This document shows, in pieces, positions 734 through 64,000 of a stretch of 64,000 bases of DNA (within the stretch, counting starts at the first letter, position 1; every line of letters starts with the position of its first letter). The translations under genes were made by a program, and so were the position numbers. The DNA lies in the NCBI GenBank assembly GCA_030141605.1, contig JAQGDQ010000164.1, positions 310,001 to 374,000 of the forward strand, in the 5' to 3' direction. The notes beneath the pieces were generated by a model that was not told the origin of the DNA, did no database searches, and worked only from the letters and a program-made list of their open reading frames with translations. This DNA comes from Tubiluchus corallicola. Lineage: Eukaryota; Animalia; Priapulida.

Positions 734-2401
<1,668 letters not shown>

Positions 2402-5330: not shown

Positions 5331-5360
5331 TCTGCACATACCCTTTTCGGTTCTTTTGAC

Positions 5361-18900: not shown

Positions 18901-21900
18901 TCATAGCACAGTTATGGCAAAAATATTACAAGCTTTGTTTTCTTCATTTTAAAGATGACAAGCCAGTCTCAGTCCCAGTTCAAAGTCAAGTCAAGATTCT
19001 TTTCAAATACTTGAGATGTTTCTAGTCAGGCATTGCCAAGAGGCACATTGCAGTAAGTACCTATACAAATAATATCATCAGCACAGATGTTAAGCTTAGG
19101 GAGTACAGAGTCCAGCAGGATGTTGTTGATAAATAGCAAAAACAAGCTAGGGGCTATTATAGATTCTCGAGGAACACGACTTCTGTTTTCATATACAAAC
19201 AAAACTGCCCCTTCATAAACAACTTCTGTTTGTAATTGTTGAGATATGGTGATATGATAGACAGAGCATTGCCACTTTGCCTTATGATTGAAGTTTAATT
19301 ATGGAGTAGACATCTTTGCCAGACTTTATCATAAGCCTTGGCGGTGTCAAGAACTATTAGTCTAGCCTCGCCTTGGTGTAAATCTTTATTAGTTTGCTCA
19401 GTGATTAGAGACTGACATACATGTTGTTAGAACTGTGTATATTTGTGTGTATTTCTAAAGTAAAGGTCATTAGCCTTATGTTAATGAAACAAAATATTGC
19501 ATATATCCACAAGTTAACCTTTGAGTAAAATTAAAAGTGGCAGATATATCTTCTTTGGCTGGCTGATCACCAACAGCATCCAGTTACTGTGAATGAATGA
19601 CAGTCTGGTACCTTTTTAGTGGCAGCAAAAATTGCCTGTCGCCAGTTTTGTGTGTTTACACATTAGAGTTGAAACTTGATATTACATCACAGCTGTGTTA
19701 TTTTCTGTATAGATGTATTATGTGCTTTATGTTAACCAAGTGGGTTTATGTTGCTTCAACATTTTGCAGTTAGAGTTTGTTCTTTGGCCTGCTATTTGTC
19801 CTCAATGATTTGGTTGTCTCAAGGAAATGAGAAAGGAAATAATATTTTTATTGAACCCGTCTTACTTTTTATGAGTTAATATTAATAATTTAAAAATAAT
19901 GATTTCAAACAGGAAAGAAAAAAAATTAATCTGCAACTAAAAAGCCATGTTAGAAGCCTAGCAATATGAATTCTCTATTTTGAAATTGTAGATTTTTGTA
20001 GTTTCATAAAGTTAAACAGCTTTAGCTTAAATATAACTATAGCTCATTTAATGAAATTGGTGCTTTTAAGGCAGATGCCCTGAAAAAGGTTTTATATTTC
20101 TTTATCACTAGTATTTAACCATCATTTTATTACAGCTACAAGGGAGCCTCATAGCTGCAGGAGTGATTCACACTGTGATAGGAGCAACAGGATTTGCAGG
20201 GTTTCTCCTGCGCTTTATTGGACCAATCACAATTGTACCCGCTCTCATGCTCATTGGAATATACTTGATTCGGGCATCAGCCAAATTTGTCTTTGTTCAC
20301 TGGGGTATAGCAGCTTTGTAAGTTGAAGTTTGGTTGATCTGATTACCTTAACTGATTTGTGGATAGCTGAATGGTTGTTATGGATGTTTAATAGCTGATA
20401 TTAAAAGAAGCTGGGTCAGCTGGTGCTGATAACGACAGAAACATAGTGTTCATGAATTAGCACAAATAATGAGTAGAAAACCTAGCCAATTCCTTTTATT
20501 GCATCTTCCATGTCAGTGGAACAGATGCTAGGAGTGTGTAAAGCTCCTTAAGAACCATGGAAGTAACACATCGCATTGTAGTTATAGCTGCTATTATGTA
20601 ATAGCTTCGTAAAGGATGGAACCATCACAACGTACATGTGGGGGTGAAAAGAATTGGCATTTTTTAGTCGTATGCTGCCGTCCCCTACATATATATATAT
20701 ATAATCATCATATGTATATGTAAATACATAGTGTTGCAAATCAAATGCTACTACATTTTGTGTTGCAACTATTACTAGAAATTTTCTGGAATATGTTGTG
20801 AACAGTTTGTGTTTTGCAGGACCTGCATTACGGCTTTGATTTTTTCACTGTATTTGGGAGGGAAATCAATGCCCATCCCAATGTGGACACGTGAAAAAGG
20901 GTTCCATGTGGATCATTACCCTCTGCATCAAGTTTTCTCTGTAAGTTAATTTACTTAAAATAACCCAATATGTAGCAATAATTTGAAAAACATCATCTGG
21001 ATAGTAGATTATCAATTAATGTTAATTTTTTCGTGGCTGTGTGAATTTGAACAGGTTTTGTGTAAAGAACTGCAGATGGCAAATTCAGGTGAGTTGATGA
21101 GTATTTTTGAAAACATAAATTTAGATATTTTGTGTAAGTTTATATCATTTGATTTTTGGTGGTACTTGTGCCACAAAGCTATATATGCTCCGATTTGTGA
21201 TAGCTATTTAAAAAAAACAGGACCCAATTTTAAATCATAGTGCAAAATGTGATACGTAAAATATTGAAAGGGAAAATGTTGTTTGTTTTGTCTTTCTTTT
21301 GGAAATCGTTCTCTTGAATATTGTTAACAACTTGCACTCATCAGGTAGTCTCGTTATCAGTTTTTGTTCATCACCTTGGTAACAGTCCTGCCTTCCTGTG
21401 TTGCTCGTAAATTGAGATAATTATGGCCTTTTAAATGTAACAGCGTTTAAGTATCATTTTATAATTTATGGAAGCATGAATGTAAAAAGTCGTTTTGTCT
21501 AAAATAGTGTAGAAAAGGTGAAATTTTAACTAATAGCATCTTATATTCGTGTCCATTTTTAGCAAAAAGAAATATAATTATTATAAGAAATTACGTCATT
21601 GCAGTTGTTGATTGGGATTGTTATTGGGTGGCTATTTTCCCTCATTCTCACTGCAACGGATGTTCTGCCGGATGATTCCTCAAGTCCTCAATATCTTGCA
21701 AGAACGGATTCACGTTCATATATAATCAGCGACTCCAGCTGGTTTAGCTTTCCATACCCAGGTAAGTGTTCACATTTCCATATGTAAACAGATGATGGAC
21801 ATCCCTCAATACTTTGACTAAAATATGCAGGTAAAGCAGGAATCATTTAAACAATGTTTTCTCTTACACGCACGTTATCAGTTTGCTGTTTAGGCAGGGA

Positions 21901-24889
21901 ATATTAGGCATAGAAGTTTAGAGCATGGTTACGTATTGGAATGTTTATCAGCATATGAGAGCTATGATTGATTTAAATGGCATATGGCAGCCATGATTGA
22001 CTTAGATGTTGAGATGCAACATGTTATGTTGTTGTGTCTGTTCAAACGCCCCCTGACGTACCCACGTAGTATTCTGACAGTTAACTAAATGTTCTGGTTA
22101 GACATTTTATTCTGCATGTTTTTGTCTCATAATCCATTCACTGTTTCTGTTACTACTACTGCTGCTGCTGCTAATTACCAATCATTCATTTAGTCAATGA
22201 TGCTTTTGCTAATTATCAGTTTCATTGGCTTGTACAAAATTTACATTTTTCAGGTCAGTATGGGGCACCCTTATTTAATGTCACTGCTTTTATTGCGTGT
22301 CTTATTGGAACAATCTTATCAATATTAGATTCAATCGCTGATTATTATGCTTGTGCAAAAATATGTCATGTGCCTCCGCCACCATCTCACGCAGTAAATC
22401 GTGGTTTGACCATTGAGGGAGCATGCAGTGCTTTATCTGGTGCTGTAGGGTGTGGTCACGCTACAACAACCTATGCAGCCAACATTGGGGCCATGGGTTT
22501 GACTAAGGTATGCATGTGATTCTTGCATATTCATTATTTCCTATTGATTTTGTACATGGAATAGGTTATATTATAATTCAAAGTAGCTTCAACAACTTTG
22601 ACTGTCCATTTCGAACTGTGCATGCTGTTCACTTTGTATCTTACTGTCATTTTCCCATTATTGCTTATAACTGTATCTTTTGAATAGAGTATATACCTTA
22701 GACATATTGTAAAATAGCATTTTGACCTGAAATGAAGTCGTGTGGTTCTTCTGGTGTTGATGAATAGAGCATCTTCATGACCATTAAACATATTAAATTT
22801 ATAACTGTTTTATTTATTTTCAAGTCGTGAAACAACACGTTCACAAGTGCTCCATTTTGTCAGGTTGCAAGTCGTCACGTGTTTGTGGCTGTCGGCATCA
22901 TCTATATGCTCTTTGGTGTGATTGGTAAGTTTTCTGCAGTCTTCATCACGATTCCCCATCCGGTGCTAGGTGGCGCACTCATTATCATTGTTGGAGCATT
23001 TATTGGAGTGACATTTTCAAATCTGGAGCATGTATCCTTGTCTTCCTCCCGCAGTCTCACGATCATCGGCACGTCGCTTGTTGTTGGCTGGATGGTGCCG
23101 TACTGGATAGAAACTGTGCCTGATGCTATCAATACGGGTAAAAGATGAATTTCTAGATACTATTTCATTTTTTAATAACTTGAAATATGAAAGATTTAAG
23201 TGGATGCCCTATGTTGTTGCTTTTCTGTATTGCTGAGCCTAATTGCTCATAATTGAAACCTGCACTATATATAAAAAATGGGAGGAAACAGATAAAATTT
23301 GTCATTTTTAGAATTAGCCTTTTTTGCCTTTTTTGAAGTAGTAAATGGGAATGAAAATTGTTGATGACAGTAATATTCTGTACAAGTAATTCTGTAGGTA
23401 ATGTTGATCTAATGGCAAAAATAGCGTATTTTGGAGCATTGATCTTTATAGCTTTTCACTGTGACGTATCTTTATTGTTCATATCCTTAGATTTACTGTA
23501 ATTTGCATTCATATTTTGATTATTCATCACTGTTCATTCGTCAATCACTGGTTAACTTCATTCATCAAGCGCCAAACAAGTTTGTTTAATTCGAATTTGA
23601 TTTAAACATTCAAATTCGATTTGAACCTAAAATTATGAGTTTGAATAATTCAGCACTTCAACTACATACGTTCTTTATCTTTTAAAGTTTGAAACAGCAT
23701 GCATAATTAACACATTTAGCTATGATTTCAGTACACAATTTTTATACAAATTATTAGTGTTTTGTTTCAGAACAAAATTGCGCAATATGCATTATCCTTG
23801 GAAGACAGCATTTTATTATATAATTAGAAATTCTTTATCATTGAATTCTAATTCGATTCAGATTTGAAATCTTGTTTCATTTTGAATTCGAAAATTAAAA
23901 ATTCGATTCCATTCAAATTCGCTTTCTGGTAGATAATGCTCATCATAACTGCTCAGTACATTGAACTCATTCTATTTAGGTAATGCAGCAGCAGATAGTG
24001 TACTGAAGATGTGTTTGGGCAATGCCAATTTGGCTGGTGCCATCCTTGCTTGTATACTAGACAATACTGTACCAGGTATTATACCAGCTTCTCCATTTTT
24101 TTTCATAAGTGAAGACAAGGGCTTGTTTTTTGTTTAAAATGACAAAAGAATGCTTACACTCTTTCCTTTTTTGTCAAAAAGAGGTGACACCACAAGTTTT
24201 CTGTATTATAGGATCATGTGACAGTGTTTACATTAGTTGTGACACCATGTACTAAATCTAGCATGGTTTTCATGCTAGTACCAATAGCCTGACATTCCTT
24301 TTGAACTCCCACGAGCATGCAAAGTTGTTTCCCACTTTCACTGGGTTCCCTACTTTGAATTCACATTTAACCATTGCAGTTTTATGCCTATTGTAATTGT
24401 TTAGGCTCAGCCATTTAATTCACCTTGTTCTTCAACCTAGGCAGGCTCCACGTCGCATAACTAATAGTATTTTCTATGGTAGCTGGTTCTGAGTCTTGTT
24501 GAATTTACATCATGTGGCTAATAATGTCTTGTTTTCTAACATTTATCTAATAATTTCACCTACAGTGGTTCCATTCTCATCTAGAATTTCAAATTGACAT
24601 TTCATTCCGGCATTTCGTTCGTTGTGTGAAGTGTAGAGAGCAGTATTCATCTAGTCTCTTTTAAATGTGAAAGATATTTTTCCACGTTTTTGTTTCTTTG
24701 ATAGGTACAGATGAAGAAAGAGGAATTACAGCTTGGAGAACAGTGCATGTGGCATCCGACACAAAGCATTACGAGGAAGGGCTGGAAGTGTATGAGCCTC
24801 TTCTTCCCAAGTTCATCAAGAGAAGTCGTTGGCTCAAATATGTGCCATTTTTACCCGATCCAGCCCTTACTTCACACATTTATGGTTAA
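12905..24889 (+). CDS. SLC23-family nucleobase-ascorbate transporter (NAT/NCS2), paralogue A, 12 coding exons, about 597 aa
   Basis: Exons 12905-12914, 14036-14223, 15481-15638, 17680-17777, 18367-18437, 20136-20317, 20820-20940, 21605-21761, 22254-22507, 22864-23137, 23980-24075, 24705-24889; all GT-AG, total 1794 nt in frame. Motifs LQGSLI, RFIGPITIVP, ARTD, WFSFPYPGQYG, DYYACAKICHVPPPPSHAVNRG, NIGAMGLTKVASR, LDNTVPGTDEERG. Confidence 0.93.
17200..17531. mobile_element. MITE with CCCAG termini (EnSpm/CACTA-like) and internal CAATATTG repeats
   Basis: Left end CCCAGGCAATACGACAATATTG is an imperfect inverted match to right end CACTATTGTGTGCTGCCTGAG. AA dinucleotide on both flanks. Many internal CAATATT(G) palindromes. 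Confidence 0.6.
17938..18278 (+). mobile_element. TTCGAA-rich hAT-like MITE, copy 1
   Basis: Begins GAGGTGAGCATT, ends CTCATCCGTA. Shares the internal block AAATTGTGTACTGAAATCAT with the reverse complement of 23575-23948. Confidence 0.6.
19060..19420 (-). mobile_element. Decayed CR1/jockey-type reverse transcriptase fragment
   Basis: Minus-strand translation gives GEARLIVLDTAKAYDKVW (LDxxKAFDKVW motif) and RVPRESIIAPSLF / LLFINN (GVPQGS...LFIND motif) with a frameshift. Confidence 0.65.
23575..23948 (-). mobile_element. TTCGAA-rich hAT-like MITE, copy 2 (inverted relative to copy 1)
   Basis: Reverse complement starts GATGAGCATTATCTACCAGAAAG, compared with GTGAGCATTCTTTATCAGAAAG at 17943. 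Collinear similarity along the length. Confidence 0.6.
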
Positions 24890-27699: not shown

Positions 27700-47673
<19,974 letters not shown>

Positions 47674-50616
47674 TGGTAGTATGTGATTGTTTGAAATTAA
47701 TGAGTTTAGGAAAACATTTTAAATTTCACAGCAAACAGCCTAAATGTGTTAGGTAATAGAGGTACTAGAAGAGAATTCACTGTGTTGTTGAAACGAAAAG
47801 ATGGCAGACGGTGTACCTGTTTGCCGTAAGTATTTTTACATATTTTCCTAACAGGGTTAGAAGTAGAAAGAAGCAAAAGTTTCAAGGTGCAAATATCTTA
47901 GTGCATTACTAAAGTGCAAAATATTAACATAATTATGCAAACGTAATTGCTTGTGGTTCTTGCAAAATCAGTGGATTTTCTATATCACCAATATTGCCTT
48001 TACGGATTTCCCGCTTCCTTTTGCTAAACTTTACCTTTGTTATACAAGACATTTCCGAGTTGTATGCTTGGGTTATTTGCATCTCATAGTATATCTTGGG
48101 GCATGATATGTTAGCAGTGTTGGAATGGATTCAATACAGTCAACCCGGAGTCATTAAACTCTGATTAAAATTAACCACAAAGTTGGGACTTAGGCCAGAT
48201 TTTAACCAGCGACACGTGTAAATGTCCCCCGAATCAAATGGGACCTTTGTCGGGATTTTCAAATATTTCCTTTCTTTCAGTCAAACTTAGTTCAAAAATT
48301 CATACCTAAACTTGAAGTTAAAATTCGTGAATTTGTGTGTTATGACAACTTGATTTGCATGACTTCCTATCAACGTGAATGCAATGGTACTCTTGCGCAT
48401 AAATCAGTAGACACTTCAAATGATTTTATGCGTTTAATGGTGTAGTTAAGCAGTACAAATATATCATGTTTTTTGGATATTTTTCATTATTGTTGTTGCA
48501 ATTTACAGACACTGTATGTTGTGATTGTCCTAACAATTTTGTTGCATTTTGCTAGTCATAGACGCTACACATGTTCTGATATTAGAGTCAGCTGTTGGGT
48601 CACTTAGGTGTTTAAGTCACGTAGCATAGGGTGCTTTACATGAAACCCGGTAATATTAGAAATTGTAATTGCCATAGGTATTTTGGTATGTTTCTTCCAA
48701 GTAACCATTTTTTGCTTTTTTGTGAAAAGCATTGATGACTGAATTAGGGTTTCTTCTAATCATGTGGTTTAATCTGATTTCTGATACATCAGCAAGTTTT
48801 AATTACTTTTCATCCACATCGAGTCTTCCCGTACAGAAATGTTATACAGTGTTGGTTATTTATCTAATATGTAATATATATTTGAGATAGATGGGTGTAA
48901 GGTGTAAGATTTTAGCCTGTGTCAGGGTAGACAGTAGCTTCACTGTACAATCAAAGTTATACGAGACAATCAGGAAGAGATTAATTATTCCAAATTATTT
49001 TTTTACTTTTTGATTTTACTGTTTTTAATTGCTTTGCTTAAATTTTTATTTTTGAACTTGATCAGTTTTGGTACATTTATTTAATGTTTTCGTAATAATT
49101 AGTTGAGTTCATTTGCCTATGTTCTAATCAAATGAAGGAAATAATTTCTTCTGCTTTATTACTTAATTCGTATTTTGTGAGTTTCAACAATCCTTTTATC
49201 CTTGATTCACACTCTGAAAGCATGACTTATCTGCTTTGAAAAAGTATGTCTCAGGAAGTCTTATCAAAGGACTATATTTTTTACAAGTCTTTGAAGGGAC
49301 CAGCTAATTTAATGTTAAAAATGATGCTATTATTGGTTTGACTTGTATTGTTAGAAATATGGCTAGCTTGTAATTTTGCGCACATTATTGCTTTGCAATA
49401 GCAGCTGATTTTACTGTTTTATGCAGGTTAGCTTATGTGCTTTAAACTTTAAAAACTAGTATTTCTTTCAGAAGGTTTCCTTTTCGTAGTTTATGATTTG
49501 TTTTTGTCAGCTTTGTAATAATTACGAATAGATTATGCGATCCGTTGCCATTTTGCATACAGATTTTTGAAACCCGATTTTCATTTCTGGATTTGTAGTT
49601 AGTTTTTAAGCTTATATGTTGCTACTGTAGCTAGATAAGTGTGTATTGCCTTTTAGGCTTTTTGATCATTTACAAAGGTTAGTGTTTTAAAGAAAGCTGC
49701 AGGGCTAAGTGGTGTTTACCCAGCATCCGGTTTTCCATCTTGCAGAATAGCCGCGGAGAAAAAATCAATAGGAAATAACTGCAGAAAAAGAGTAACGCAA
49801 ATGCAGGCAGCTTAAACGGGTGCATTGAAAATATATATAAACCAATTTTATTTATTCCGCACCCCCAAAATGTATACGCATCCGGATGCTGGGTAAACTC
49901 CACCTTAGGGTGTTTTCACACACATTGTACCGAGTAGGCGATACGTTGTCATCAGTTTGCCCTTATAAAAGTTACATTTTAAATAAATAGCTGTTTTAGC
50001 TGATTCACAAAAGCACAACAACCATTTGGCAATAATGAGGTAACTTTCTGGGAAACTACAGCATGTAAGGAATTCCTTTATATTTCTTCAACTATTGTAA
50101 ATTTGTAGGATTCGTGAACAATCCTTTGATTCTTGTAGTGGCGAATTGTTGTTAACTCTCGCCTCACATTACTGAAATGTGTTTGTAGAACAGAAGTACT
50201 TAGTTCCCTGCAATTGTGTACATTCTAAATGCTTAAATGTAGAGCTTAACTGCTATTGCAGAAAAATTGCATATCTGTCATGATGATAAACTTATGTAGT
50301 TGTTGAAACCCATATCAGCCCATATAAATATTCAGTGTAATTGAGATTTGCTGTTTTATTTTCGTTGAATATTGTTCTCGTCGGCCAGTGTTCCGTGTAT
50401 AAAATATTATTTAAGATGTTGTTTTAATGTACTGACTACAGTCTGATTGACAATGCTGTATTGCGTACATTGCTGCAAAGTGACTGTGAACTTATGTAAT
50501 TTCACTTAGCAAGTGTAAGATTTAGGAGTTTTTGCACTGCAGGATAGGTAGTGTCCGTGATCATGTATGCTGTAAAATTTTTACTCTGCTTGTTTAGCAA
50601 TTACTGTATCAAGGTG

Positions 50617-51222
50617 GTGGCGGCTCGTGCATAGGTACTGTGGTACTGCAGCACCCCCTGTTTTCACTCATTATTATCGATAATATTCAATATATGATCT
50701 TTTTTCTTTAGCTCTTTTTTATACTTGTGAGCAACTGGAGCATGTGAGGGAAGTACAATTTGCTTTCCTGCCCAAGCAACGCAGTGTTTGGCTGCTGTGC
50801 ACATGTGGCCATGCGCACATGTCTGAACTAACACGCTGTACGATATCGTCTGCTGCTAGGTAGAAAAGCACTGTCTGTATCACAGTAACAATTGCCACGT
50901 GCTTACCGTCTACCGTCGTATTCTTGGATATGATAGTGTAAATTTAGCGTGTTTGCTTAAAACAAATTATTTAATAATGGACGCCTTACATCCCCAACAA
51001 ATAAGTTTTGTGATTGTAAGTGAACTACAACAGCTTATTTTTTTGCAATTGTCTCCCCATGAAAAAGTTTCAGTGAAAAAAAGAGGCCGTTCAATACCTG
51101 ATCTTCAAATATAGCTGCAACATTAAAATTACATATGTTTGTTACATTTTACACAGTAGTAAAACAATGGCTAAAAATTTTCTGAAGGAGCACCCCCACT
51201 AATTTTAGCTACGAGCCGCCAC
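50617..51222. mobile_element. hAT-like MITE
   Basis: Perfect 12-bp inverted termini GTGGCGGCTCGT / ACGAGCCGCCAC, with AGCACCCCC subterminal motifs near both ends. No clear TSD. Confidence 0.65.
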
Positions 51223-52290
51223 AGACTAGCAGTGTGAGAACATAACAAAATTAGATATCCTTGCAATTTGATTTTATTGTTTCCTAACATTTTCTCATGT
51301 ATTTAACTAATACATCAATGCTATTGTTGAAGTGCGTTTTTTATGCGAGACTTAAACTTAATATTATGACTCATTTTTTCCTACATGTTTTTAACATATA
51401 TTTACATGTCAGAAGGCAAATATGTATTATAAAATTGCAAGTAGACTGTGTGATAAATCGGTTTTTCTGAATTTTTCTTTTCTATTACTGGAACATTTTG
51501 CAGTTTAAACTACTTTCTACTTGTCTGTTGATCTCTAACTTACAGTGCCTCCTGTTTCTTGCCAATAGATGTTATCATGTTGTGTCTATTATAATATTAT
51601 TGCCACTGTTTACAGTATAAGTCTCGCCATCTATTAAAATTTTATTAAACTAATAACTAGTGGAAATTTGTTTCCACATTAATTTTGAGCATTTTTATCT
51701 GTAAATAATTTATAACATGAAGCGTTTATTAACTTAGGAAAACTGAAAACTTATAAGGAGGCACGTTATAATGCTTCGCGTATTTCAAATTATTCTAACA
51801 ATCTGTATCTCAGGCAATCTATATTTTTCTTAAATTCATGTTGCTGTATTTCTAAGATGTCGTTTTTCAGCCAAGATGATCATTCACTGTTATGATGTAT
51901 TGTAAATACACTGTTGTACTTATGATGAAATTGAGAACTGTAGACTTTTTTCTTTAATTGACATTTGGTTTTTAATGGAAGACTTTGTATAAGTATCATG
52001 GGAATTCAGTCACCTTTTCTTTCTGTCAGTTTTTCCAGAGGCACGTGAATTCTGCTGTGCAGTTTACAAACTAATTCTGTACTATTAGATTCAAAATAGT
52101 AGATGTGTAATGATCAAAGTAAGAATGCAAGAAAAAGGGCAAAGCGGGGAAAAAGAGAAGGGTAGCCTTTTGTAGACGAATCGAAACGATTTGAACTACC
52201 TCAGCTGGTCAGAGCTAAAACTGTGGAAGTGAGAGAAAGAATGAAATAATTCTGCTGTAACTTTCTTATCGGGCTACTGATAATTGTATT

Positions 52291-52448
52291 CGGGGTTGGG
52301 AACTCCTGTCTTGAATTTTTGGTCCTGACCCGAATCCGGGTCACGTTCACTTCATGCTGAACCCGAAATATCTCGACCTTGAACTCAGTTAGCGTTCTGA
52401 ACCCCGACCTCGAGCAGCAGCAAATCCCTATCTGAACCTTGACCCCCC
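52291..52448. repeat. Degenerate (TGA)ACCCGA-motif cluster, likely transposon subterminal repeats
   Basis: CCTGACCCGAATCCGGG, TGAACCCGAA, CTCGACCTTGAACTC, TGAACCCCGACCTCGA, TGAACCTTGACCCC within about 150 bp. Confidence 0.45.
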
Positions 52449-52814
52449 AATGAAGTCTAGAAATTTGAAGTCAGTATATTTTTTAAATTGTTTCTTTATA
52501 CAAAGTCAAATTCTCAAATTTGACAAAATAGAAAGCCAACTGTCTTGGAACAGACAGAATTTTGAAAAGATTCAGTTTTTTGTAGAATTTCCTGCATGTT
52601 TGGTTCATCTGAAACTTTTGTGTGGCTTTTTTGTCAGACTAAAATTAATTAATGATTTTTAATCTCACTTTCGCAGTATAGTTGGTATCGTTAAGTTTTT
52701 ATATTTATTTATCATTATTTTAAGTATGATAATTTTTATATTCTGAACTCGCGTTCACCCTGCTGTTTGTGTGTAAGTTTTGAGGCAGCTGATTCATTCA
52801 AAGCAGTGCTGGCA

Positions 52815-53225
52815 GTGAGCCAGCTACAACGTCTGATTGGCTATTGCGAGGTGGATCCCTGCCAGCTGATTGGCGTTTCCCGGATCCCTCTATTGATCTG
52901 TCTGCAGTCGCTCAAATCGTAAAGCTGGATAGCTTGAAGCTGTTACGGAAGCAGAGATTTTGTTACTGTTTAGCCCTTGCGGATTATGACCATGGCTTTA
53001 CGTTGTCAGTGATACTGCAACATTGCATTTGGCTTGCAGTGATCACCATAGTGACAGAGTATTGTGAACAGTTAATTTCGTGCAAGGCGGATTTTTAATC
53101 AGATTAAAAACAGGCCCTACTTTACTGTATAGTGAACAGTCTGTTAGAGTGTATCAGAGTATTGTGAACAGTCTGATAGTGTATCAGAGACGGTGTCTGA
53201 ATAGCGATTACCCAATAAAGTGAGT
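52815..53225 (+). promoter_or_regulatory. Candidate HCP promoter and non-coding first exon
   Basis: Two CTGATTGGC (inverted CCAAT) boxes, with ATTGG at 52836 and 52869, each followed by GGATCCCT. Local CpG enrichment. Donor AA|GTGAGT at 53220. The first coding exon has an upstream acceptor (TGCAG ending 55941), which implies an upstream UTR exon. Confidence 0.45.
53056..53190. repeat. Imperfect about 30-bp tandem repeat (CAGAGTATTGTGAACAGTCTG...GTGTATCAGAG)
   Basis: Two adjacent units at 53132-53190 plus a partial unit at 53055-53072. Confidence 0.65.
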
Positions 53226-55979
53226 AATATCACACATCTGTGAATTTGTGTATTTTTGCAGTAACGTAGTGTTTAGTAAATTAGTGTTTAAAGCACTATA
53301 GAAGTGTTTTACCTACAATAGCGTTTAGAGTAGTTTAAGCACCTAAAGGTATGTACACAGGTGTGTTTTTCTAGAAATGTGTTGTGTCGGATACTGCTGC
53401 ATTCCTTTTTAACTAACTTGTCCATGTTTCCATGTAACATGACATTGTAATTTTCCGTTTATAATCATTACAATGTAAATGTACTGTTGTCAGCTAGTGC
53501 ACGTGTTATGTCACAAAATGTTGTAGTAGTCCCATAATCCCATTCTTAAATTACAAAGCATGAAATGTTTTGTAATCAAATCAGTAATGACATGGCTTCT
53601 GGATCAAATCGTGCAGTTGTCGGTTTTGGCTTTACGCTTCATCTGGTAAGTCTCAACAAGTATGGATTTGATGTACTCCAGCACATATGTTGTGTTTAGC
53701 TTAATATTATCACTGTCTGTTTTATGCAACATGTTTCATTGACATTATTATTAAACTGAACGTTTTTGACCAATTTTCAGTAGCCTTTCAAATGCTGAGT
53801 TTTTAAAGCACTTAGTCTAGATTGCAAGTCATTAAGTTATTCGCTTATTGAGTTTTTGCTTGCCAACTGCCAGGATATGTCTTTTAGAATGACATTTATT
53901 GTTGTCATGAATCTGACTCTTTGTGAACTTGCCATTTAGAACACCATTTATTGTTGCTGTGGTATCCCTTTTATCGTAAACTTTTAACACGGAGGAACTT
54001 TATTATGATGTCATAATAAAACAATGGCTAAAACTTATTACATGAACAAAATCGAGAACAAAATCATGGCGAAATAGACAGTTTTATAATATTCTGAAAT
54101 TTGTTAGATACTCATAGATACACATTTGTTTTAAAAATCTTGAATTAGCTGACATTAGAATTGAAATTAAAATGACATAATTATGTTAAATCTTTTGACA
54201 AAGTACATTATAGTGACTATAGATTTATATCAGCATGAAAATTGTTTAAAATTCACTGTAATTTTCATTTTATGTAGATTCACTGAACTTTATTGCCGGC
54301 ACAGCAAAGAAGGCAAAAACTACATCGTCTCACATTATCTTGTCTATTTAACTTAAACACAGCCTTACAAAAATCAGCATGTAATGCTCAATAATCGTGA
54401 AATTTGAACTTCTGAAGTTTAACGCATCTTTGAAAAAAATGCAAATCTCTCACCTCAAAAAATCTCCCGGCCACCATTAATAATTTGCAGTAGAAAATCT
54501 TAGTTATTTGCATTAGAAACACGCTGTGCACCAGCTTCTAGCAGATTAGTCAAAAATTAAAGTTTTAGCGTTCCAGGAACTTGACTGAAATGAATTTACG
54601 AGACCAGCGTCAGTATTTTTACTGTTATCATTACCATTGCACATGAAACATTGCGCAAGTTCAGTTCATGCATCACTACTGACCTCATTAAAAGTGCAAT
54701 CTGCCCTCAGTAGCACAAGGTGCACTATATACATGTCATTACTAGGACAACATGCCCCATAATGTACGAGCATTAGAACAAGATGCACCATTAACATTAT
54801 TATCAGTGGAACAAGTTGCCCTGTGCGCTCAGATCATTAGAACAACGCGCCCTGCTGTGCAATATTGGATTTTACAACAAAATATCTTTATTACCTTGTA
54901 ACGTGCCATGTAGATTGCTATCAGGACAAGCTGTTCAACTGCGTTCACATACGCATGCACACACACGCGCACATACACATTAGGAAAGCCTAACATCTAA
55001 TTAATTGAGGAAGGAAGCACTGAAAAATTGCAGACTGACCAGGATTTGAACCCAGCACCTCACTGCTTACATAGTAGATTGTTCACACGCACATGAAGTA
55101 CAGTGTGAACTGATTAAATATGTTTGTATAGATATATTGTAATTGGGTCAATATTACTATATAAAGCTGAACACAATGCATGCCCTAGAATAGATTAAAT
55201 CTATACTTGTTGATGTTTACCAGATGAAGCACAGAAGCAAACGTTACCATGGCATTTCTTTTTAGCAGAACATCGTGATCATTGTGATACCTGCTTAAAT
55301 AAGAACTTGTATGCTAGAAATAACAATAAATAGCAATAACATGTTTCTCAAGAAATAATTAGCTATGTTTACTATGTATTTCTCTGATGTTTTTCTCAAA
55401 ATAAAGTAATGGCCATTCACCATTCTTAGTCTCTTGTCTGTAAACAGTGCAGTACGAAAAAGCTCTAAGACGAGCAGCCCTTAATTTCCCATTTACATCT
55501 TATTTCCAGGGGTATATGCATGCGCATAGGTGTTGGCTAATTATAATAAATCACTTTATATTGTTCTATTAACATACCAGTCTTCAACATTTCTCTCTTG
55601 TCTAAACTAGACAAATTCAGGTCAACATAAAACTGTTATCTTCTTTCAGTGTTGGTGCAAGATGCTAAAATGAGGATAAACATTTTGTCTTGACATTTAC
55701 ACAAATAACAAAATAACAGTAACAATGACTTCATTTTTAATTGCTTGTTATTTTTGTGTGTTTACCAGCCACAACATGCTGTCAATTCGCATTTTTGCGT
55801 AAGTTAATGAAAATTTTGCAAATTTTCTCTTTTATTAAATTGACCACATAAACACCTGCTATAGTTACTTTAAAGCAGTTGCTGACAGAAACGTGGGAAA
55901 TAAAGGTATAATTTTATAACCTTTTTGGTTGGTAATTGCAGATATTGTGCTAGCACAGATAAAATAACTTCCGAAGAAG

Positions 55980-58900
55980 ATGGCTTCCACATTGTTGAGA
56001 GCATTGTTACGTGCCACAACTGTGCGCTATCTAACAGCAGGGCGATGCAGTGTTTTAGAGAGACACGTGGCTCCCTTTAACAGGACTATTTTGCGAAATC
56101 TTGGAGAGGTTAAGTTGAGAAGCTATACCACAAAAGCCAGAGCAGCGAATGCCGATACTGAAGGTATTATATGATTATTGTAGCGCAGCTTCTAGTGCTA
56201 TTCAGATCTCATGTCTTTCAAATTTCTTAGTGAAATACTGAGAAGTTTTGTTAATTTTCACTTAATCTGTATGACATTATGAATTTTCTATTATGTAAAG
56301 GTGAACTTATGATTGGCTTGCAAAAGAAATAGTAAAAAATGTTCTAAATCTGGATTTGAACCAGTGGCTTTCTAGCAGGTATTCTTGCCAACTCTATTGC
56401 ATTTTTGGCAACTTCTAAGCGAGAGGCACAGGTTTCAGAATCTGGCAGTGGAATGATTTTTTTATTCATTTTTTCCATGCTAGTCATAAAATTTCTCCTT
56501 AGGATGGAAGACTTATATCATTAATAACTTGATAATCAATCTTGCTTTATTAATTAGTTAGTTAACTAATTATTTTCATTAATATGAAAATAAGAGAGTT
56601 ATATTATTACTATGAAAGTTAGTATGAAATGTAAGTTTAACAAAAGTTCTTGTTGCCATGTGAAAAGGCTAATAACTAGGCTCTAGTAAGTTGTGGCTAA
56701 GTGGTCGCAATGGTACTGACTGTCCATTTCTTTCTGTTATTCACTTGCAATTTACTTGACTGATATTGTACGTGTGCCACAGTCAGTTATGTCCGGTCTA
56801 CTACAGCTGAAATCGTGCATATATCATATGTCTGATTTTCGAATGAATTAGCTTTCATGACTGTGGGTAGTGTAGAAAACAAATTGTTGCCTCTATGTTA
56901 TTTAGTGAGGTTATCTTATTTGTGCTACTGCAGCACAGCAGAGCACATAGCTCTAATTGGCTCACATATTTTTTCACTAGTTAAAACATTACGAATTGAC
57001 CAATGTAATAAAACAGCTTTGTGCACAAGATTTTTTATGATTTTCATTACTTATTTTCAGACATGTTTTGTTTTCAATGTGAACAAACCAAGAATCGGAA
57101 GGGGTGCACTACGATCGGAGTTTGCGGAAAAACTGCTGAGGTTTCGCACCTGCAAGATTTGTTGACGTACATCTTGCGTGGTCTGGCCTTGTACGGGCAT
57201 CGTGTCAACAAGCTGGGCAGACATCTTAATAATGAAGTGTACGATTTTATGTACTCAGCATTGTTCAGGTGAGCAAGTACTTTAGAACTTCCATGATCCC
57301 TTTAATGAGTATTTTAAAGTTGCTTAGACCTGTTCTTTTAGAGTGAGCATTAAATTATAGATCATAGTTTTATATTACCCATTCACGTTGTATGCCAACG
57401 TATAAGAGACTATCAGCGTATGTTTTACAATAATCCATTGTGTGCCAATGTATATGTTACACTGACTAATTCTGTTATTTGCACACCAATAATACATACC
57501 ACAGTTTGCATATTCTTTGTGAATGATGATGAACTGCATGCATCACAGCAATGTAGCCATCAAATTACTGCAATAAATGCTAATATGAGTAGATATTGTA
57601 AGTTCATTTAATTAATTTAATTTGGTACAAATGTTCTCTGATTAAATTCATTGGAATTGTTTTGGTATGTAACTTGACATATTAGCAGCAACAGCTGTAG
57701 TAGTTTATGATTCAAGTAGTTCTGAAAATTTTATGAATTAGCATTCAGAAATTTTAATTAGTACAATATATAGTGTGATCAAACATGAGAATGTGGCAGT
57801 GACAATAAAGTTCGATGATCATAATTCAATTGGTGCTCTCTAAAATACTTATACATTCTGCTTAAAGTCTGTCTGGCACAATTAATTATCCAAATTATTC
57901 TATATTGTTCCAAATTATTTAAATTATTCTAAATTATTCCAAATTATCTAAATTATTATTCTTATTTCAAACAATGGAATTAAGGAGGAACTAGATTTAT
58001 TGACCATCACATTTATTGTCACGCATCATTCTACGCCGCTCGCTTGCTTGGACACAACTTCAATATCATGCTTCGTGAATTTTAAGAAATCTGTAGACGA
58101 AGTTTTCTGTTTTTTTGGATCTGGTTTAAATCTTTTAAAACTGCTCGAATTCTGTGGTAACATCTGTCCAAAATGTTCACTAGGCTTATTTTGGGTAACT
58201 ATTTCCAAAAAGAAAACAGCGTTTTTGTTTGTTTATTGTTCTGCTTGTGTTAATTTTACTTTTGTTTCTTTTTGCAGCACACTAACAAATGTGAACTTTG
58301 ACCCAGATAGGTTTCTTGTCTACATTTCTGAGGCACTCAAACACAGGGATGCTGTAAAAGAACTATATTTTTCTACTTGCAAGGTCAGACTTAATATAAT
58401 TATAATAAAAATACTTGACAATTACCTTTATCACATCAGTTTAATATATCACACTAGTAATTTACACTTCCATTCCTATTCACTGATGATTGGATCTGTC
58501 TCATTTTGATTTATCTTATAAAGAACAGACCTTAAAGTAAACAATGACAAGACATTATATTAAGAAATGCTCGTGTCATAAACAGACCATAACAGTTTCA
58601 CCATAAAATGACTAACGCTGTCATTCTGCTTAACTGAATTTAGCTTATACATGTGTCATAAATCTGTGAGAGTATGAAATTCCTTTCACGTGCTTTTAAA
58701 CACTAATTGTCTGAAAACGGTTTACCTCGTAGGAACAAGGAGCAAAACCTGAAGCATTTCCTGAAGGTCCAGCCACATATCGCCCTCCTGCGGAAGATGT
58801 ACATACTCTTGCAGAAGAAGGTAAGTCACAGGAAGAGTTACTTATTGTGGATAATAAATGAACAATTTTACTTTTAAAAAAAGGAAAAGTACTGTGGATT

Positions 58901-61900
58901 CTATAACTGTAGAAAACTTTGTAGAAATGGAAGAGATAGCTTCTTCATTTGTTGAGCAATGATACCAGTTGGTCGCATATAAAATGTTATAACAAATTCC
59001 TTGTAAGCCGAGTCATTTTTTTATACAGTTTGGCGTGTTGCAAACTGGGATCATGCACTTAATGACATGGTCTGCTCAGTGTTGCTGTTTGTGGCAGGAC
59101 CAGAACTCATCAAGGAAAATCCGTTACGAGCAAACACTGAACTGACTTGATATATATTGTCCTCTAAACAAATTGAATATTTATATAGCGTGGCAGTTGA
59201 GACACCTCAAAACAGTACTGAACCCATCGGTCATGTGTCCATTCACTAGCCAGGTTCGCATTGATTAACTTCATACACTCGTAGTCATTTGGTTAAAAAT
59301 ATATGAATGTCTTTATTAAAAATATTAAAAGCGTTTTACTTTGAAAACGACATCAGGACTAGAAGTTAATAAGTATATTGCACTGGCAGTCGTTTTTAAA
59401 TTGAAATGTAATCATGATTTTGTTTTAAATAATCAGTTTTAATACTCTAAATAAGGACGATTCACTAAAGTGGCTTTTACATCTTTGGCAGGTAAGAAAT
59501 TTGGACTGCGCCTTGAAGAAGCCATTTACGGAGCAGATTTGCATGGAGTTCGGCAGATGATTATCTTTGGCTTGAAGGGAATGGCGACTTATGCCAGACA
59601 TGCAGCTTTGCTGGGACAAGAGTCACGAGACATTTCTGCATTTGTATTTGAGGTAACTATTTGCAAAAGGTTGCATTTCATTTTATGTGGGTGGTGTGCT
59701 ATGGTGTGGGTGGCAATACATATATATATATATATATATATATGCAAGTAAAATCAATAATATAAATTAAATGAAAGATTGTGTAAAATATTAAAGATGA
59801 TTTGCTTTGCCAATGTATGACTGTTTGACTATTTCCATATTAACACTTGTTTTCCATGTCTACACTGGTTTCAATATCAACACTAGTGTTGTTGTATGGC
59901 GTAGGAGGTGTGGTGCGGTGTGGATGGTGTGTTATGATTGGTGCAGTGGGTTAGTGTGGATGGTGTGTTGTGAGTGGGGCGTGGGTGGTTGTGTGTTGTG
60001 AGTTTATGCACAAAATTCTTTTTGCAGGTTGGCCAGTTATTAATTGATTACACACACTAATCACATCATCAGATCTCATAAAAGTAATCGTATTTGATCT
60101 GGTCATTTAGCTTCTTCCTTTGCTCTCACACAGAAATGGCTGTTTTGCTGAAAGATCTTTGTAAAAGTTCGTAAAATTTCAAGACTACCAGCTGCTGATG
60201 ATGTACGGTTAAACCAACTTGGTTCCGTGCCATTCAGTATCGATCAGCAGGATTAAAGATTTTCAGTTTAAGATTTTGTTCACAGCAGTTGCATCATTGC
60301 TATTGCTGTATTTAAGGAACTAAAGTTACAAAGCATAGTAGTACTGAATAACTGTGATTTAAATTGTAACTGATATTGCATGCAGAGGAAAATAATTACG
60401 TGGATATTTCAATATAAATATATCGAATAGATCAATATGTTGGTAAAACAGCCTGGCGTGTTTTTTCTGAAAAGTCATTTTATAAGTTTGATTCTCTGGC
60501 AGTATCGTACCAAAAAAAAACTTCAAAAATGTCAATCCTATTGAGCATAATCCATCTAAACTGCTACTGATCCTTCATATCAATTCAGCACATCAGTAAA
60601 AGTAGTGTGAGTATAGAAACTGCCAGCAGTATATGATAACTATTCCGTAAGTTAACATTACGAATGAACATTTGTTTAGCTCATGCTTTACGAACAGCTG
60701 TCAATAATCAGACAGGCAGCCATCTTTTCCATTCATGGTACTCCCCAGTGAAGAACTTTATAATGAGTTGAATGATTTCTACCGATTTTTGTGAAAAACA
60801 TTTAGGCAGTCGATTTCTTAGAAACTAGTGCAGAATCTGACAGGACCAATTTGGCCACGAACCTGGGATTGGCTTTGCGGGTTGGTGAAGTAAATTTGAA
60901 AGGCATGGAACTGCTGGACAAGGGTCATCGTGACCAGTTTGGAACTCCATCTCCCCACGAGGTCTCAACAGCTCCTGTGCCTGGAAAGGTATAATTTGAA
61001 ATTTCTGTCATTGGTTCCTGATCTTTGTCTTTTACTTCTTGTTTTAATTGAAAACTTGATTGCATGATATAATAACTGCAAGAATTAGTAAGGAGATCAA
61101 TGGTTGGGGTAACTTCCTGCATTTCTGATGAAGATATGTGGTCTCAAGCTATTTTTATCAATATTTATGATTCAAAGTGAATTAAATTTTTGAAAATTTT
61201 ACAAAATCCCGAAAATTTTACAAGATTTTTCAGAAGAATGGTATCTGCAAGCACACTGCAAACTAGAATCTAACACTCAATGGTAAGGTCTACGCAAAGC
61301 TGATATTTGTGGCAAAACAGGATCCTGGCTCAATATAAAGGCTAACATTCTAAGATGAGGCACTAAAATATGACATGAAAGACATATTTCTATTCAACTA
61401 GGACTACAAAACTAATTTACATAGTGAGAGACTGGTGAATGACTGGTGAACACTAGTCTCTCACTACGTAAATTAGTTTTGTAGTCCTAGTTGAATAGAA
61501 ATATGTCTTTTATGTCATATTTTAGTGCCTCATCTTAGAATGTTAGCCTTTATATTTAGCCAGGATCCTGTTTTGCCACAAATATCAGCTTTGCGTAGAC
61601 CTTACCATTGAGTGTTGGATTCTAGTTTGCAGTGTGCTTGCACTAAACTCCACAAAAAGGATTATTTTGTTTCTTTGAAGGAAGTTAACAGCCAAGCGTT
61701 AAACGTATTCATAGTACTATCACTACCTATTACTGTGCATTCAGATTAGTGAGTTTCTGATACGAGTTTCCTCCGTGACAGCAATCTCACACGTGTGAAC
61801 TGCTTTGTGAGTTACTGTTGGCAAGTTATTGCAAATTCTGTAACAGGTGCTGCGAGTTGATTTCCTACAAGCTAGTATGAATGCCTTGTCGAGTTAACTC

Positions 61901-63330
61901 TCGACACTTCGGAGATTAACTCGCAGCAAGATTTGTTCTCTAGTCTGATCACGCTTGGAAATTACTTGGCGAGTGACTGAGCAAGTTCACAAGACCTGAA
62001 AACTCGCTAATCTGAACGTGCCATTAGACATGAATGTGCTCATGAAAAGTGATGCATTTTGTATCATGCGATATCTTCGAGAGTCACTTTCCTAGGAGCT
62101 GTACGTTTTAATAATAGCTCGATTATAATTCTTCTTTTCCTTTATCGTTTAAGGCGATCCTTGTGTCTGGCCATGATCTTGTTGATCTTTTGGCTGTACT
62201 GAAAGCTACTGAGAAAACTGGTATCAATGTTTATACACACGGAGAGATGCTGCCAGCTCACGGATATCCCAAATTGCGCAAATATAAGGTAAATTCATTA
62301 AGGTTAGTCTAGGCTGATGTGGTCGCATGACCAAGATAGCAAAAGTTGTTGCCTTTTGTGATCTAGATATTGTAGTATGAAAATCTGTCATCACGGTATT
62401 ATGTTAGACATGTTATGGATTGACGGTGCTGTTATAGAAATTTCATTGCTTCTTACTTGAGAATGTCATATTTGTTACATTGTTAGAATACAATTGTTTT
62501 TTTTTATATATCATATTATTTTCAATAAAAGAAGCAAAAAACAAAATGGTTTATTCAAAAATTTGAATTGCATAGAATACAGTTTGTCTATACATTCAGA
62601 GCGCTGAGTTCAAATTAGCTCAAGTTTTTGCAAATTCCATTCCTTGAGTTTAATTTGGCTAAAGAATTTGATGATTTGTCGCTAATCACTGCAATCTCTC
62701 AGAATCTGGTGGGACATTTTGGAGGAGCTTGGATGCTGCAGAAATTTGAGTTTCCGAGATTTCCCGGTCCGATCGTCGTGACAACAAACTGCATCATTGA
62801 ACCACATCACTCGTACAAGGACAGACTTTTCACCCTAAACGATGTCGGGTGGTCAGGTAATTTCATTAATTAAATTGTTCATGACAAATATTTATCTTAT
62901 AAATTGTGATTACCATCCTTTACAAAATGTCGGAGCTGTTAACTTCTCTTCATAAACATTTGGACAACACCTGCACGAGTAACAACAGCAAAATGGAAAA
63001 AGTTGTGTACTGTAAAAGGTTCATTATCGTGACCTAAGAATTACACGCAAATTTTGTTGTTGTTTGCTGACATAATTTGTGTTAATGTTACATAACCTTG
63101 TTTTGTTACATATCCATATAAAATTGAAATTGTCACTTGATGAGAATTCCCCATTTGTTAAAGGCTGTAAACACTTGGATTTATCACGTGACGATCACAT
63201 GGCAGACCTGCTGTCCTCTGCTATGAGCTGCGAAGGCTATACTCGGGAGTTTTGTGATTCCTACAAAGACAGAGACGGGAAGTTGACTGTAGGATTTGGG
63301 CACGACTTCCTGCTTGCTAATGCCGGAAAG
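55980..63330 (+). CDS. hcp: Hybrid cluster protein (HCP, prismane protein, hydroxylamine/NO reductase) with N-terminal mitochondrial-type presequence; 3' exons lie beyond the window
   Basis: Exons 55980-56163, 57061-57268, 58278-58383, 58733-58820, 59492-59652, 60806-60988, 62154-62288, 62703-62856, 63164-63330; all GT-AG, total 1386 nt = 462 codons without a stop. Motifs [101 protein letters not shown]. Confidence 0.95.
57880..57962. repeat. Degenerate 10-bp tandem repeat (AAATTATTCY)
   Basis: About 7-8 imperfect units visible in HCP intron 2. Confidence 0.75.
61246..61642. repeat. Long near-perfect palindrome (foldback): two 192-bp arms, 13-nt loop
   Basis: Left arm 61246-61437 is the reverse complement of right arm 61451-61642, with 5 mismatches by manual comparison. 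The centre contains the direct repeat GACTGGTGAA-T-GACTGGTGAA. Confidence 0.95.
61734..62022. mobile_element. MITE with GGCAC(A/G)TTCAGA-type termini (possibly PIF/Harbinger-like); related end at about 63927
   Basis: Left TTCAGATTAGTGAGTTT versus right AAACTCGCTAATCTGAA-CGTGCC. A similar terminus GGCACATTCAGACTATCAAGTTTC occurs near the window end. Confidence 0.55.
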
Positions 63331-64000
63331 GTATGCATGTCTCAAAATGTTGTTGATTGTAGACACTGTTTTTAAAAAGGAAATTAGAAAATGAAGCATA
63401 TCACTACAGTATTTTTACAACTTTTTACCTTCATGAGTTTATGCAAAAAAGGTAAATATCCACCATTGTGAATGCCTGCAGTCAACTGGTCCAATTTCTG
63501 GTATTAAATTAGAGCGTGTTTTATAGATATTTGCTTATTTTGTGATTTTAATAAAGTTTGCTTTTAGAAATAATAGTGAAATGTGCTTCATATCATATCA
63601 CTATTGCTGGGTACTCACACCCACTTGTTGTTTTGTTTTAATCCCAAGTAATTATATTGGTGAATTAATATAATTTTGACTGTAATCTTACTCTTGAAGC
63701 AACAGGGACAGATTACATATTGTTTGTGCACACCCTTAAAGTAATTTTCGAGGAGGCCAAGCATTCAGGGTATTTTCATTTATGTTTTAAATCTCACATT
63801 TTGCTGTAACGGTTTGATCTGTAAAATAGATTATGTATTACACTTGCATCATTTTTTTGCTTTAATGTTCTAGTTTATTGTGTTTATTGTGACATGTCAT
63901 AATTGTCGAAAACACTACACAGTTACGGCACATTCAGACTATCAAGTTTCCTCTAGCGAATTCTCTCTGAGAGTAAACACGCAAGTGTGAACGGCTTTGC

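Follow-up and report, generated by a model that had tools for sequence, protein, structure and literature searches.

The window analysed here, a 64,000-base stretch of the Tubiluchus corallicola contig JAQGDQ010000164.1 (positions 310,001 to 374,000, forward strand), carries a gene for a hybrid cluster protein (HCP) on its + strand at 55980-63330. The gene is an intron-containing, host-encoded class I HCP gene, and its product falls in one clade with the HCPs of annelids, bivalves and a brachiopod. We consider it fairly probable that the product is imported into mitochondria and there reduces nitric oxide (NO) to nitrous oxide (N2O) in low oxygen.

The nine GT-AG exons proposed in the initial annotation were confirmed. 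Joined, they give 1386 nucleotides, or 462 codons, with no stop; all eight internal introns (307 to about 1,165 nucleotides) run from GT to AG, and a ninth donor GT stands at 63331. The exons are as follows.

55980-56163 (+): exon 1, ATG and an Arg-rich, acid-poor leader; no Pfam match
57061-57268 (+): exon 2, class I [4Fe-4S] motif and first helices; Pfam Prismane 1-57 (E = 1.8e-13), TIGR01703 (E = 3e-17)
58278-58383 (+): exon 3, helical-bundle segment; found by tblastn with animal HCPs; GT-AG and in frame
58733-58820 (+): exon 4, linker segment; GT-AG, frame kept; its 5′ edge is the start of a contig of run X2 (see below)
59492-59652 (+): exon 5, Pfam Prismane 111-147; spliced to exon 6 in an X2 contig
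60806-60988 (+): exon 6, Pfam Prismane 151-199; X2 splice joint from 59655 to 60812
62154-62288 (+): exon 7, ligands His317 (SGHD) and Glu341 (THGE); Pfam Prismane 208-252 (E = 6e-14)
62703-62856 (+): exon 8, ligand Cys385 (TTNC); Pfam Prismane 255-307; one X2 contig spans exactly this exon
63164-63330 (+): exon 9, tblastn match; GT donor after it; the remaining ~170 codons lie past the window

The Prismane profile matched five of the nine exons in the correct profile order, four of them at or above the gathering score, and tblastn using animal HCPs found exons 2, 3 and 5-9. Chance was therefore excluded as the source of the gene model. The G+C content was 46% in the exons and 33% in the introns. 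An alternative acceptor for exon 6, an AG four bases on at 60810, gave nine stops and was rejected, and weak Pfam matches below the cut-off in exon 2 (Toxin_TOLIP, E = 0.02; YWFCY; Comm) and exon 9 (DUF679) were taken as chance. Because the Owenia orthologue runs for 172 residues beyond the point that matches the end of exon 9, the other four ligands are placed outside the window, past base 64000.

Sequence resembling spliced transcripts was found in run X2, a run from one study that we guess to be RNA and that comes from a relative about 92% identical to the window; it covers parts of exons 4, 5, 6 and 8 only, and the gaps between them carry no information. For the exact window stretch, the listing of runs included none of RNA. 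A 353-base X2 contig joins exons 5 and 6 with 1156 bases skipped, and the contig whose start coincides with the 5′ edge of exon 4 has a loose end that, by eye, resembles the end of exon 3. The X2 contigs support the gene model, not expression in the window animal.

The N-terminal cubane motif of the window protein, Cys65-X2-Cys68-X8-Cys77-X5-Cys83 (CFQC at residue 65), has the 2-8-5 spacing of class I, and the same spacing without the class II insertion was present in all 24 parsed orthologues. When ligand positions were counted on an alignment of the Owenia orthologue with the Desulfovibrio vulgaris structure 1e2u, His317, Glu341 and Cys385 proved equivalent to D. vulgaris His244, Glu268 and Cys312, as had been claimed from the motifs SGHD, THGE and TTNC. 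Eight conserved sites are visible in the window protein. The ligands Cys406, Cys434, Cys459 and Glu494 and the conserved Lys496 (D. vulgaris numbering) were found in 26 of 26 animal-clade proteins, and all 13 scored sites were kept in 25 of these, the remaining one being an N-terminal fragment.

All four full-length animal orthologues scored 617-651 bits with TIGR01703, more than 250 bits above its cut-off of 360.8, and the model matched each of the three window exons tested singly; the whole-protein scores are those of the orthologues, not of the joined window protein. With the Ni,Fe carbon monoxide dehydrogenase (CODH) model, TIGR01702, the same four failed (38-46 bits against a cut-off of 478). 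Ni,Fe-CODH has the Pfam Prismane domain and a distant fold homology in common with HCP, but the animal proteins differ from it in carrying the HCP-type ligand set. When exon 8 alone was compared with the PDB, all seven matches were HCPs. The middle ~100 residues missing from class III HCP are covered by window exons 3-5. An AlphaFold model of the Helobdella orthologue (predicted template modelling score, pTM, 0.79) gave TM scores of 0.78/0.89 against D. vulgaris HCP, and aligned over about 590 columns with 1e1d/1e2u and over 416 with class III.

Among the closest known systems are class I enzymes. Like the HCPs of D. vulgaris (1e2u) and Methanothermococcus thermolithotrophicus (8cnr), the window gene has the 2-8-5 spacing and the full-length, monomer-type fold, and the animal HCP shares with both the full set of hybrid-cluster ligands and, as far as the minus strand upstream of the window gene shows, the lack of an adjacent reductase gene. 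Unlike those genes, it is nuclear and spliced, encodes a basic leader of ~60 residues and belongs to an oxygen-respiring animal. E. coli's class II Hcp-Hcr system, the model for reduction of NO to N2O, has the same catalytic cluster ligands, whereas the window HCP is without its four-residue insertion and the upstream minus strand gave no Hcr-like gene. Homology suggests that the mature protein is monomeric, with a [4Fe-4S] cluster for electron entry and a hybrid cluster for catalysis.

The window gene is not unique, and animal hcp genes are already auto-annotated in NCBI. In a search with exon 2, the second match was Helobdella robusta. A search with the Helobdella protein, of which the best 120 of 7,956 matches were listed, returned HCPs of Lingula, Owenia, Mytilus, Sinanodonta, Mya, Solemya, Mactra, Dreissena and Mercenaria, and look-ups by cluster brought in Lamellibrachia, Ridgeia and a further four species of Mytilus. 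With Helobdella, the NCBI orthologues come from at least 12 genera of annelids, bivalves and the brachiopod Lingula. When the joined window protein was compared by blastp with 141 proteins, the 24 best were all of the animal clade, headed by Lingula (54%) and Owenia (59%); identity was 46-59% across the ten genera compared, and the nearest row reached only ~60%.

Whether built from 225, 76, 31 or 40 rows, the trees put the window protein in one clade that includes all named animals (support 1.00, and 99, 100 and 100, respectively; the first a FastTree value, the others from the Shimodaira-Hasegawa-like approximate likelihood ratio test, SH-aLRT). Its nearest neighbours were Owenia and Lingula (SH-aLRT 96-97), a position that by itself would make a lophotrochozoan host likely. 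The HCPs P0046 and P0052 branched together as sister to the whole rest of the animal clade (SH-aLRT 99-100), and their identity could fix how deep in animals HCP goes. The 'hydroxylamine reductase-like' or hcp genes of Lingula, Owenia, the bivalves and the others have the same ligands and leader as the window gene. In the Mytilus cluster of P0035, M. galloprovincialis and M. edulis each have several records, full and partial, of which some lie on one scaffold; this suggests local duplication.

The annotated animal genes also appear to share introns with the window gene. Twenty exon-sized open reading frames (ORFs) from contigs, assigned to clades by 90% cluster, were mapped on the window protein, and intron positions were deduced from the ORF ends. 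Six ORFs of the bivalve and leech-containing clades stop at window intron 2 and share their read-through residue, one of the bivalve clade ends at intron 4, and one starts at about intron 1. Five ORFs begin at intron 7 and six lie next to intron 9, in the siboglinid and leech-containing clades. Five positions (1, 2, 4, 7 and 9) are apparently common to the window gene and other animals. Intron 8 was read through by all nine informative fragments from three other clades and seems peculiar to the lineage of the window; in two annelid clades, four fragments are uninterrupted from about intron 9 to the end of the protein. If the deduced introns are right, the HCP gene with introns would predate the annelid-mollusc split. 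The placement in the animal clade and the apparently shared introns support the view that the window gene is old and fully integrated in its host. That much of the 'old, fully domesticated horizontal acquisition' put forward in the initial annotation stood; the transfer is a separate matter, considered below.

The proposed mitochondrial-type leader agrees with a presequence in length and composition. In the window protein, the first cluster motif is preceded by 62 residues (exon 1 and the first codon of exon 2), and the first 40 residues of the protein include seven Arg and one acidic residue. The R-S-Y|T at residues 47-50, identified by eye, we take to be a putative presequence cleavage-type motif. 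A leader of at least 50 residues with a net charge of at least +3 and no more than two acidic residues was present in 24 of the 26 animal-clade members; a basic leader was found in nine of the ten named non-algal protists examined and in none of the four named bacteria. The HCP of Acanthamoeba is mitochondrial by microscopy and is reported to be among the most hypoxia-induced mitochondrial proteins (PMC13632651). Together with the HCPs of green algae, amoebozoans and unicellular holozoans, it shares with the animal HCP the eukaryote-rich region of the tree and the kind of leader. Localisation and hypoxia induction are experimental in Acanthamoeba, whereas for the animal HCP, in a multicellular host, they are predicted. 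On these grounds, a mitochondrial location of the animal HCP is likely.

As the physiological task of bacterial HCP, reduction of NO to N2O is favoured (PMC10210160), and the proposed animal mechanism follows it. The leader would direct import into the matrix and be cleaved near residue 49, after which the mitochondrial Fe-S machinery would load the N-terminal [4Fe-4S] cluster and the hybrid cluster. In hypoxia, the hybrid cluster would bind NO and reduce it, shielding cytochrome oxidase and Fe-S enzymes, with electrons passing through the cubane from an NAD(P)H flavoprotein. The electron donor of class I HCP is described as unknown (PMC10210160, PMC10502027). We propose a flavoprotein because no reductase gene lies alongside and because in distant relatives HCP is joined with a diflavin or cytochrome-b5 reductase in one protein. 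In the upstream flank, none of 62 minus-strand ORFs (33 or more amino acids, 47.7-55.9 kb) matched Pfam, so that no Hcr-like partner came to light there; the 50 plus-strand ORFs of the same region were partly scanned. Among 15 long HCP relatives scanned, eight were fused to a diflavin-reductase-type region, one to flavodoxin, one to cytochrome b5 plus reductase and one to cytochrome b5; four had no other domain.

P0271, P0272, P0276, P0277, P0278, P0296, P0300, P0358, P0267, P0290, P0301: HCP fusion proteins, with flavodoxin and FAD-binding, or cytochrome b5 and reductase, regions

Eight of the fusion proteins group with the HCP of Alphamonas (SH-aLRT 97), and the long relatives branch outside the animal clade, so the fusions only hint at the kind of donor that may serve class I HCP.

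With the same gene and location, the main job of the protein could instead be protein S-nitrosylation, in NO signalling during metabolic depression, or peroxide handling at reoxygenation. Both activities have been reported for bacterial HCPs (PMC10210160), the clam genome paper discussed below proposes an antioxidant role for the family (PMC5499747), and sequence cannot separate these roles from NO removal. However, S-nitrosylation is debated, HCP expression tracks oxidative stress inconsistently, and studies tend toward NO reduction (PMC10210160). We regard this alternative as unlikely beside NO reduction.

Where the animal gene came from was examined with the protist and prokaryotic sequences. 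HCP was found in the choanoflagellate Salpingoeca punica, the ichthyosporean Amoebidium and the filasterean Pigoraptor, with leaders similar to the animal ones, and also in amoebozoans, a malawimonad, a breviate, an alveolate and algae. In the 76-row tree, the animals lay within a 50-row clade (SH-aLRT 97) in which every named member is a eukaryote, and in the larger trees each named non-animal neighbour was likewise one. With 31 and 40 rows, the animals joined Amoebidium and Clydonella, an amoebozoan, at modest support (87 and 93). In none of the four finished free trees was the animal clade nested with support among prokaryotes. Approximately unbiased (AU) tests were run on 31 rows under LG+G4, on a quick tree that is itself suboptimal. 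The p values for grouping the animals with other sequences were 0.247 (the three holozoans), 0.657 (the choanoflagellate), 0.641 (the choanoflagellate and the ichthyosporean), 0.605 (chlorophytes), 0.34 (all six prokaryotes) and 0.166 (the four named bacteria). Log-likelihoods (lnL) of the choanoflagellate, choanoflagellate-ichthyosporean and chlorophyte constraints were 7-9 higher than that of the free tree and those of the bacterial constraints 10-24 lower, differences that were not significant.

The trees show a single origin of HCP in animals. A eukaryotic source with the leader already present would be the simpler reading of the sequences, and we envisage that the lophotrochozoan ancestor once gained or retained the gene from a eukaryotic mitochondrial HCP pool, with many later losses. 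A 2026 reconstruction lists HCP among the anaerobe-enriched proteins of the mitochondrion of the last eukaryotic common ancestor (PMC13777428). HCP, Prismane and PF03063 gave no match in the eight supplements of that paper that were searched, and Helobdella and Lingula belong to its 673-species set, not to the 203 eukaryotes across which it shows HCP. The horizontal transfer assumed in the initial annotation is unproven from the sequences, and the 'rare retention' that it gave in brackets is at least as good. We put vertical descent from unicellular ancestors at about an even chance, and transfer from another eukaryote somewhat below that.

A gene passing straight from a bacterium into an early lophotrochozoan, with leader and introns gained later, seems to us quite improbable. 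The known animal range, as seen in the best 120 of 7,956 matches and the cluster look-ups, is restricted, and the AU test keeps both prokaryotic groupings. A 2006 study also favoured transfers for eukaryotic HCPs, which it predicted to be confined mostly to unicellular eukaryotes (PMC1484493). Against such a transfer stand the 50-row clade with its eukaryotic named members and, short of significance, the order of the constraint likelihoods. In addition, a metagenome scan with a bivalve-clade exon gave at least 80 loci of 47-69% identity, none of those listed being animal by score, and the best of these reached 362 bits; animal-clade members scored 399-510 and two unicellular holozoans 372-375, the databases being different and the scores roughly comparable.

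Two further explanations fared worse. That the protein is physiologically a hydroxylamine reductase is in keeping with its NCBI names, with the NCBIfam equivalog label and with the activity measurable in several HCPs, but the millimolar Michaelis constant (KM) and low turnover at neutral pH have been called incompatible with such a role (PMC10210160), which makes it very improbable. That the locus is an artefact of assembly or contamination, with a protist contig fused to animal DNA, or else a pseudogene in decay, is largely refuted: although the 3′ end lies outside the window and X1, a DNA run that contains the window stretch, is possibly the window's own source and so not independent, X1 depth was present in all 30 bins from 50000 to 64000, the 462 codons are free of stops, introns are apparently shared, and the protein nests among named animals beside Owenia and Lingula.

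Several observations weigh against our reading of the window gene as an animal mitochondrial NO reductase from a eukaryotic source. Its 3′ ligands (Cys406, Cys434, Cys459 and Glu494) are past base 64000, so the window shows the first 462 codons. A single splice joint, that of exons 5 and 6, was observed directly, in the ~92%-identical relative and in a run guessed to be RNA. The best hydrophobic moment of the leader was not above that of shuffled sequences (383 of 2000 reach it), in a test that proved uninformative. In the 31- and 40-row trees the four named bacteria fall among eukaryotes; the three unicellular holozoans were grouped with the animals in none of the four free trees, and the AU test rejected none of the six origin constraints, bacterial included. 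No HCP of a named non-lophotrochozoan animal was among the best 120 of 7,956 matches, and a vertical origin therefore needs many losses. The function of HCP is debated even in bacteria (PMC10210160), and our literature searches yielded no data on the activity of any animal HCP, its place in the cell or its induction.

The surroundings of the gene agree with the claim that it is embedded among animal genes: its neighbours match TIP49/RUVBL, SGT1/ecdysoneless, two tandem SLC23-type permease genes and a rhodopsin-family G protein-coupled receptor (GPCR), in DNA whose G+C content is mostly 32-39% (2-kb bins). The other features of the window are as follows.

734-2401 (-): RUVBL/TIP49 exons, divergent from the SGT1/ecdysoneless gene
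5280-7307 (+): SGT1/ecdysoneless gene, one unbroken 676-codon frame, apparently intronless
~14020-24886 and ~36436-47670 (+): two tandem xanthine/uracil-permease (SLC23-type) genes, closely alike
near 29309-29614 (-): fragments resembling the first exon of the SLC23-type permease genes
34141-35127 (-): rhodopsin-family GPCR, single exon, between or within the permease genes
61246-61642 (no strand assigned): foldback element, like a miniature inverted-repeat transposable element (MITE-like), in HCP intron 6; 192-nucleotide arms, 97% complementary, 13 nucleotides apart
50600-51220, 61775-61870 and 63950-64000: high-copy repeats, X1 summed contig depth 150-2800 against mostly 1-30 elsewhere

The repeat pieces at 61.8 kb and 63.95 kb are related to each other, and a 58-nucleotide piece in intron 4 is related to the foldback element. 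Candidates for the transposons first reported in the HCP introns are this foldback element and the high-copy repeat of intron 6 (X1 depth 271 against mostly 1-30 in neighbouring bins).

Two structure papers of 2023 limit HCP to prokaryotes and unicellular eukaryotes (PMC10210160, PMC10502027). A single sentence of the Manila clam genome paper (2017) places the hydroxylamine reductase/CODH family in the clam and not in oyster, snail or octopus (PMC5499747). In a 2007 study of Riftia, an HCP cDNA from a gill-enriched poly-A library (GenBank EF648468) was put down, as a suggestion, to bacterial contamination (PMC2175520). Because two other siboglinids, Ridgeia and Lamellibrachia, encode HCP, the Riftia cDNA may have been a host transcript. 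We found no study of animal HCP in the literature covered; van Lis et al. 2020 and Hagen 2022 fall outside that coverage and may list metazoan HCPs. The locus is less novel than first considered, in that orthologues are widespread, being annotated in NCBI for many annelids and bivalves, with the clam paper listing the family; a characterised animal orthologue was not found in that literature.

What is noteworthy is the whole little-studied lophotrochozoan HCP clade rather than the window locus alone. This ligand-complete clade of annelids, a brachiopod and bivalves, farmed mussels and clams included, stands against the microbe-only range of the 2006 and 2023 papers. It makes animal HCP a candidate for NO management under low oxygen that is testable in tractable species, and it brings animals into the discussion of whether the anaerobic enzymes of mitochondria were inherited from the ancestor or gained by transfer. 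N2O from sediment-dwelling macrofauna is usually credited to their microbes. More tentatively, and as a possibility that we consider rather doubtful, annelids, brachiopods and bivalves may keep an ancestral anaerobic mitochondrial NO reductase from unicellular ancestors that most animals have lost. If that were true, animals would make N2O in hypoxia with a host-encoded enzyme, and part of the N2O of sediment macrofauna would be the animal's own.

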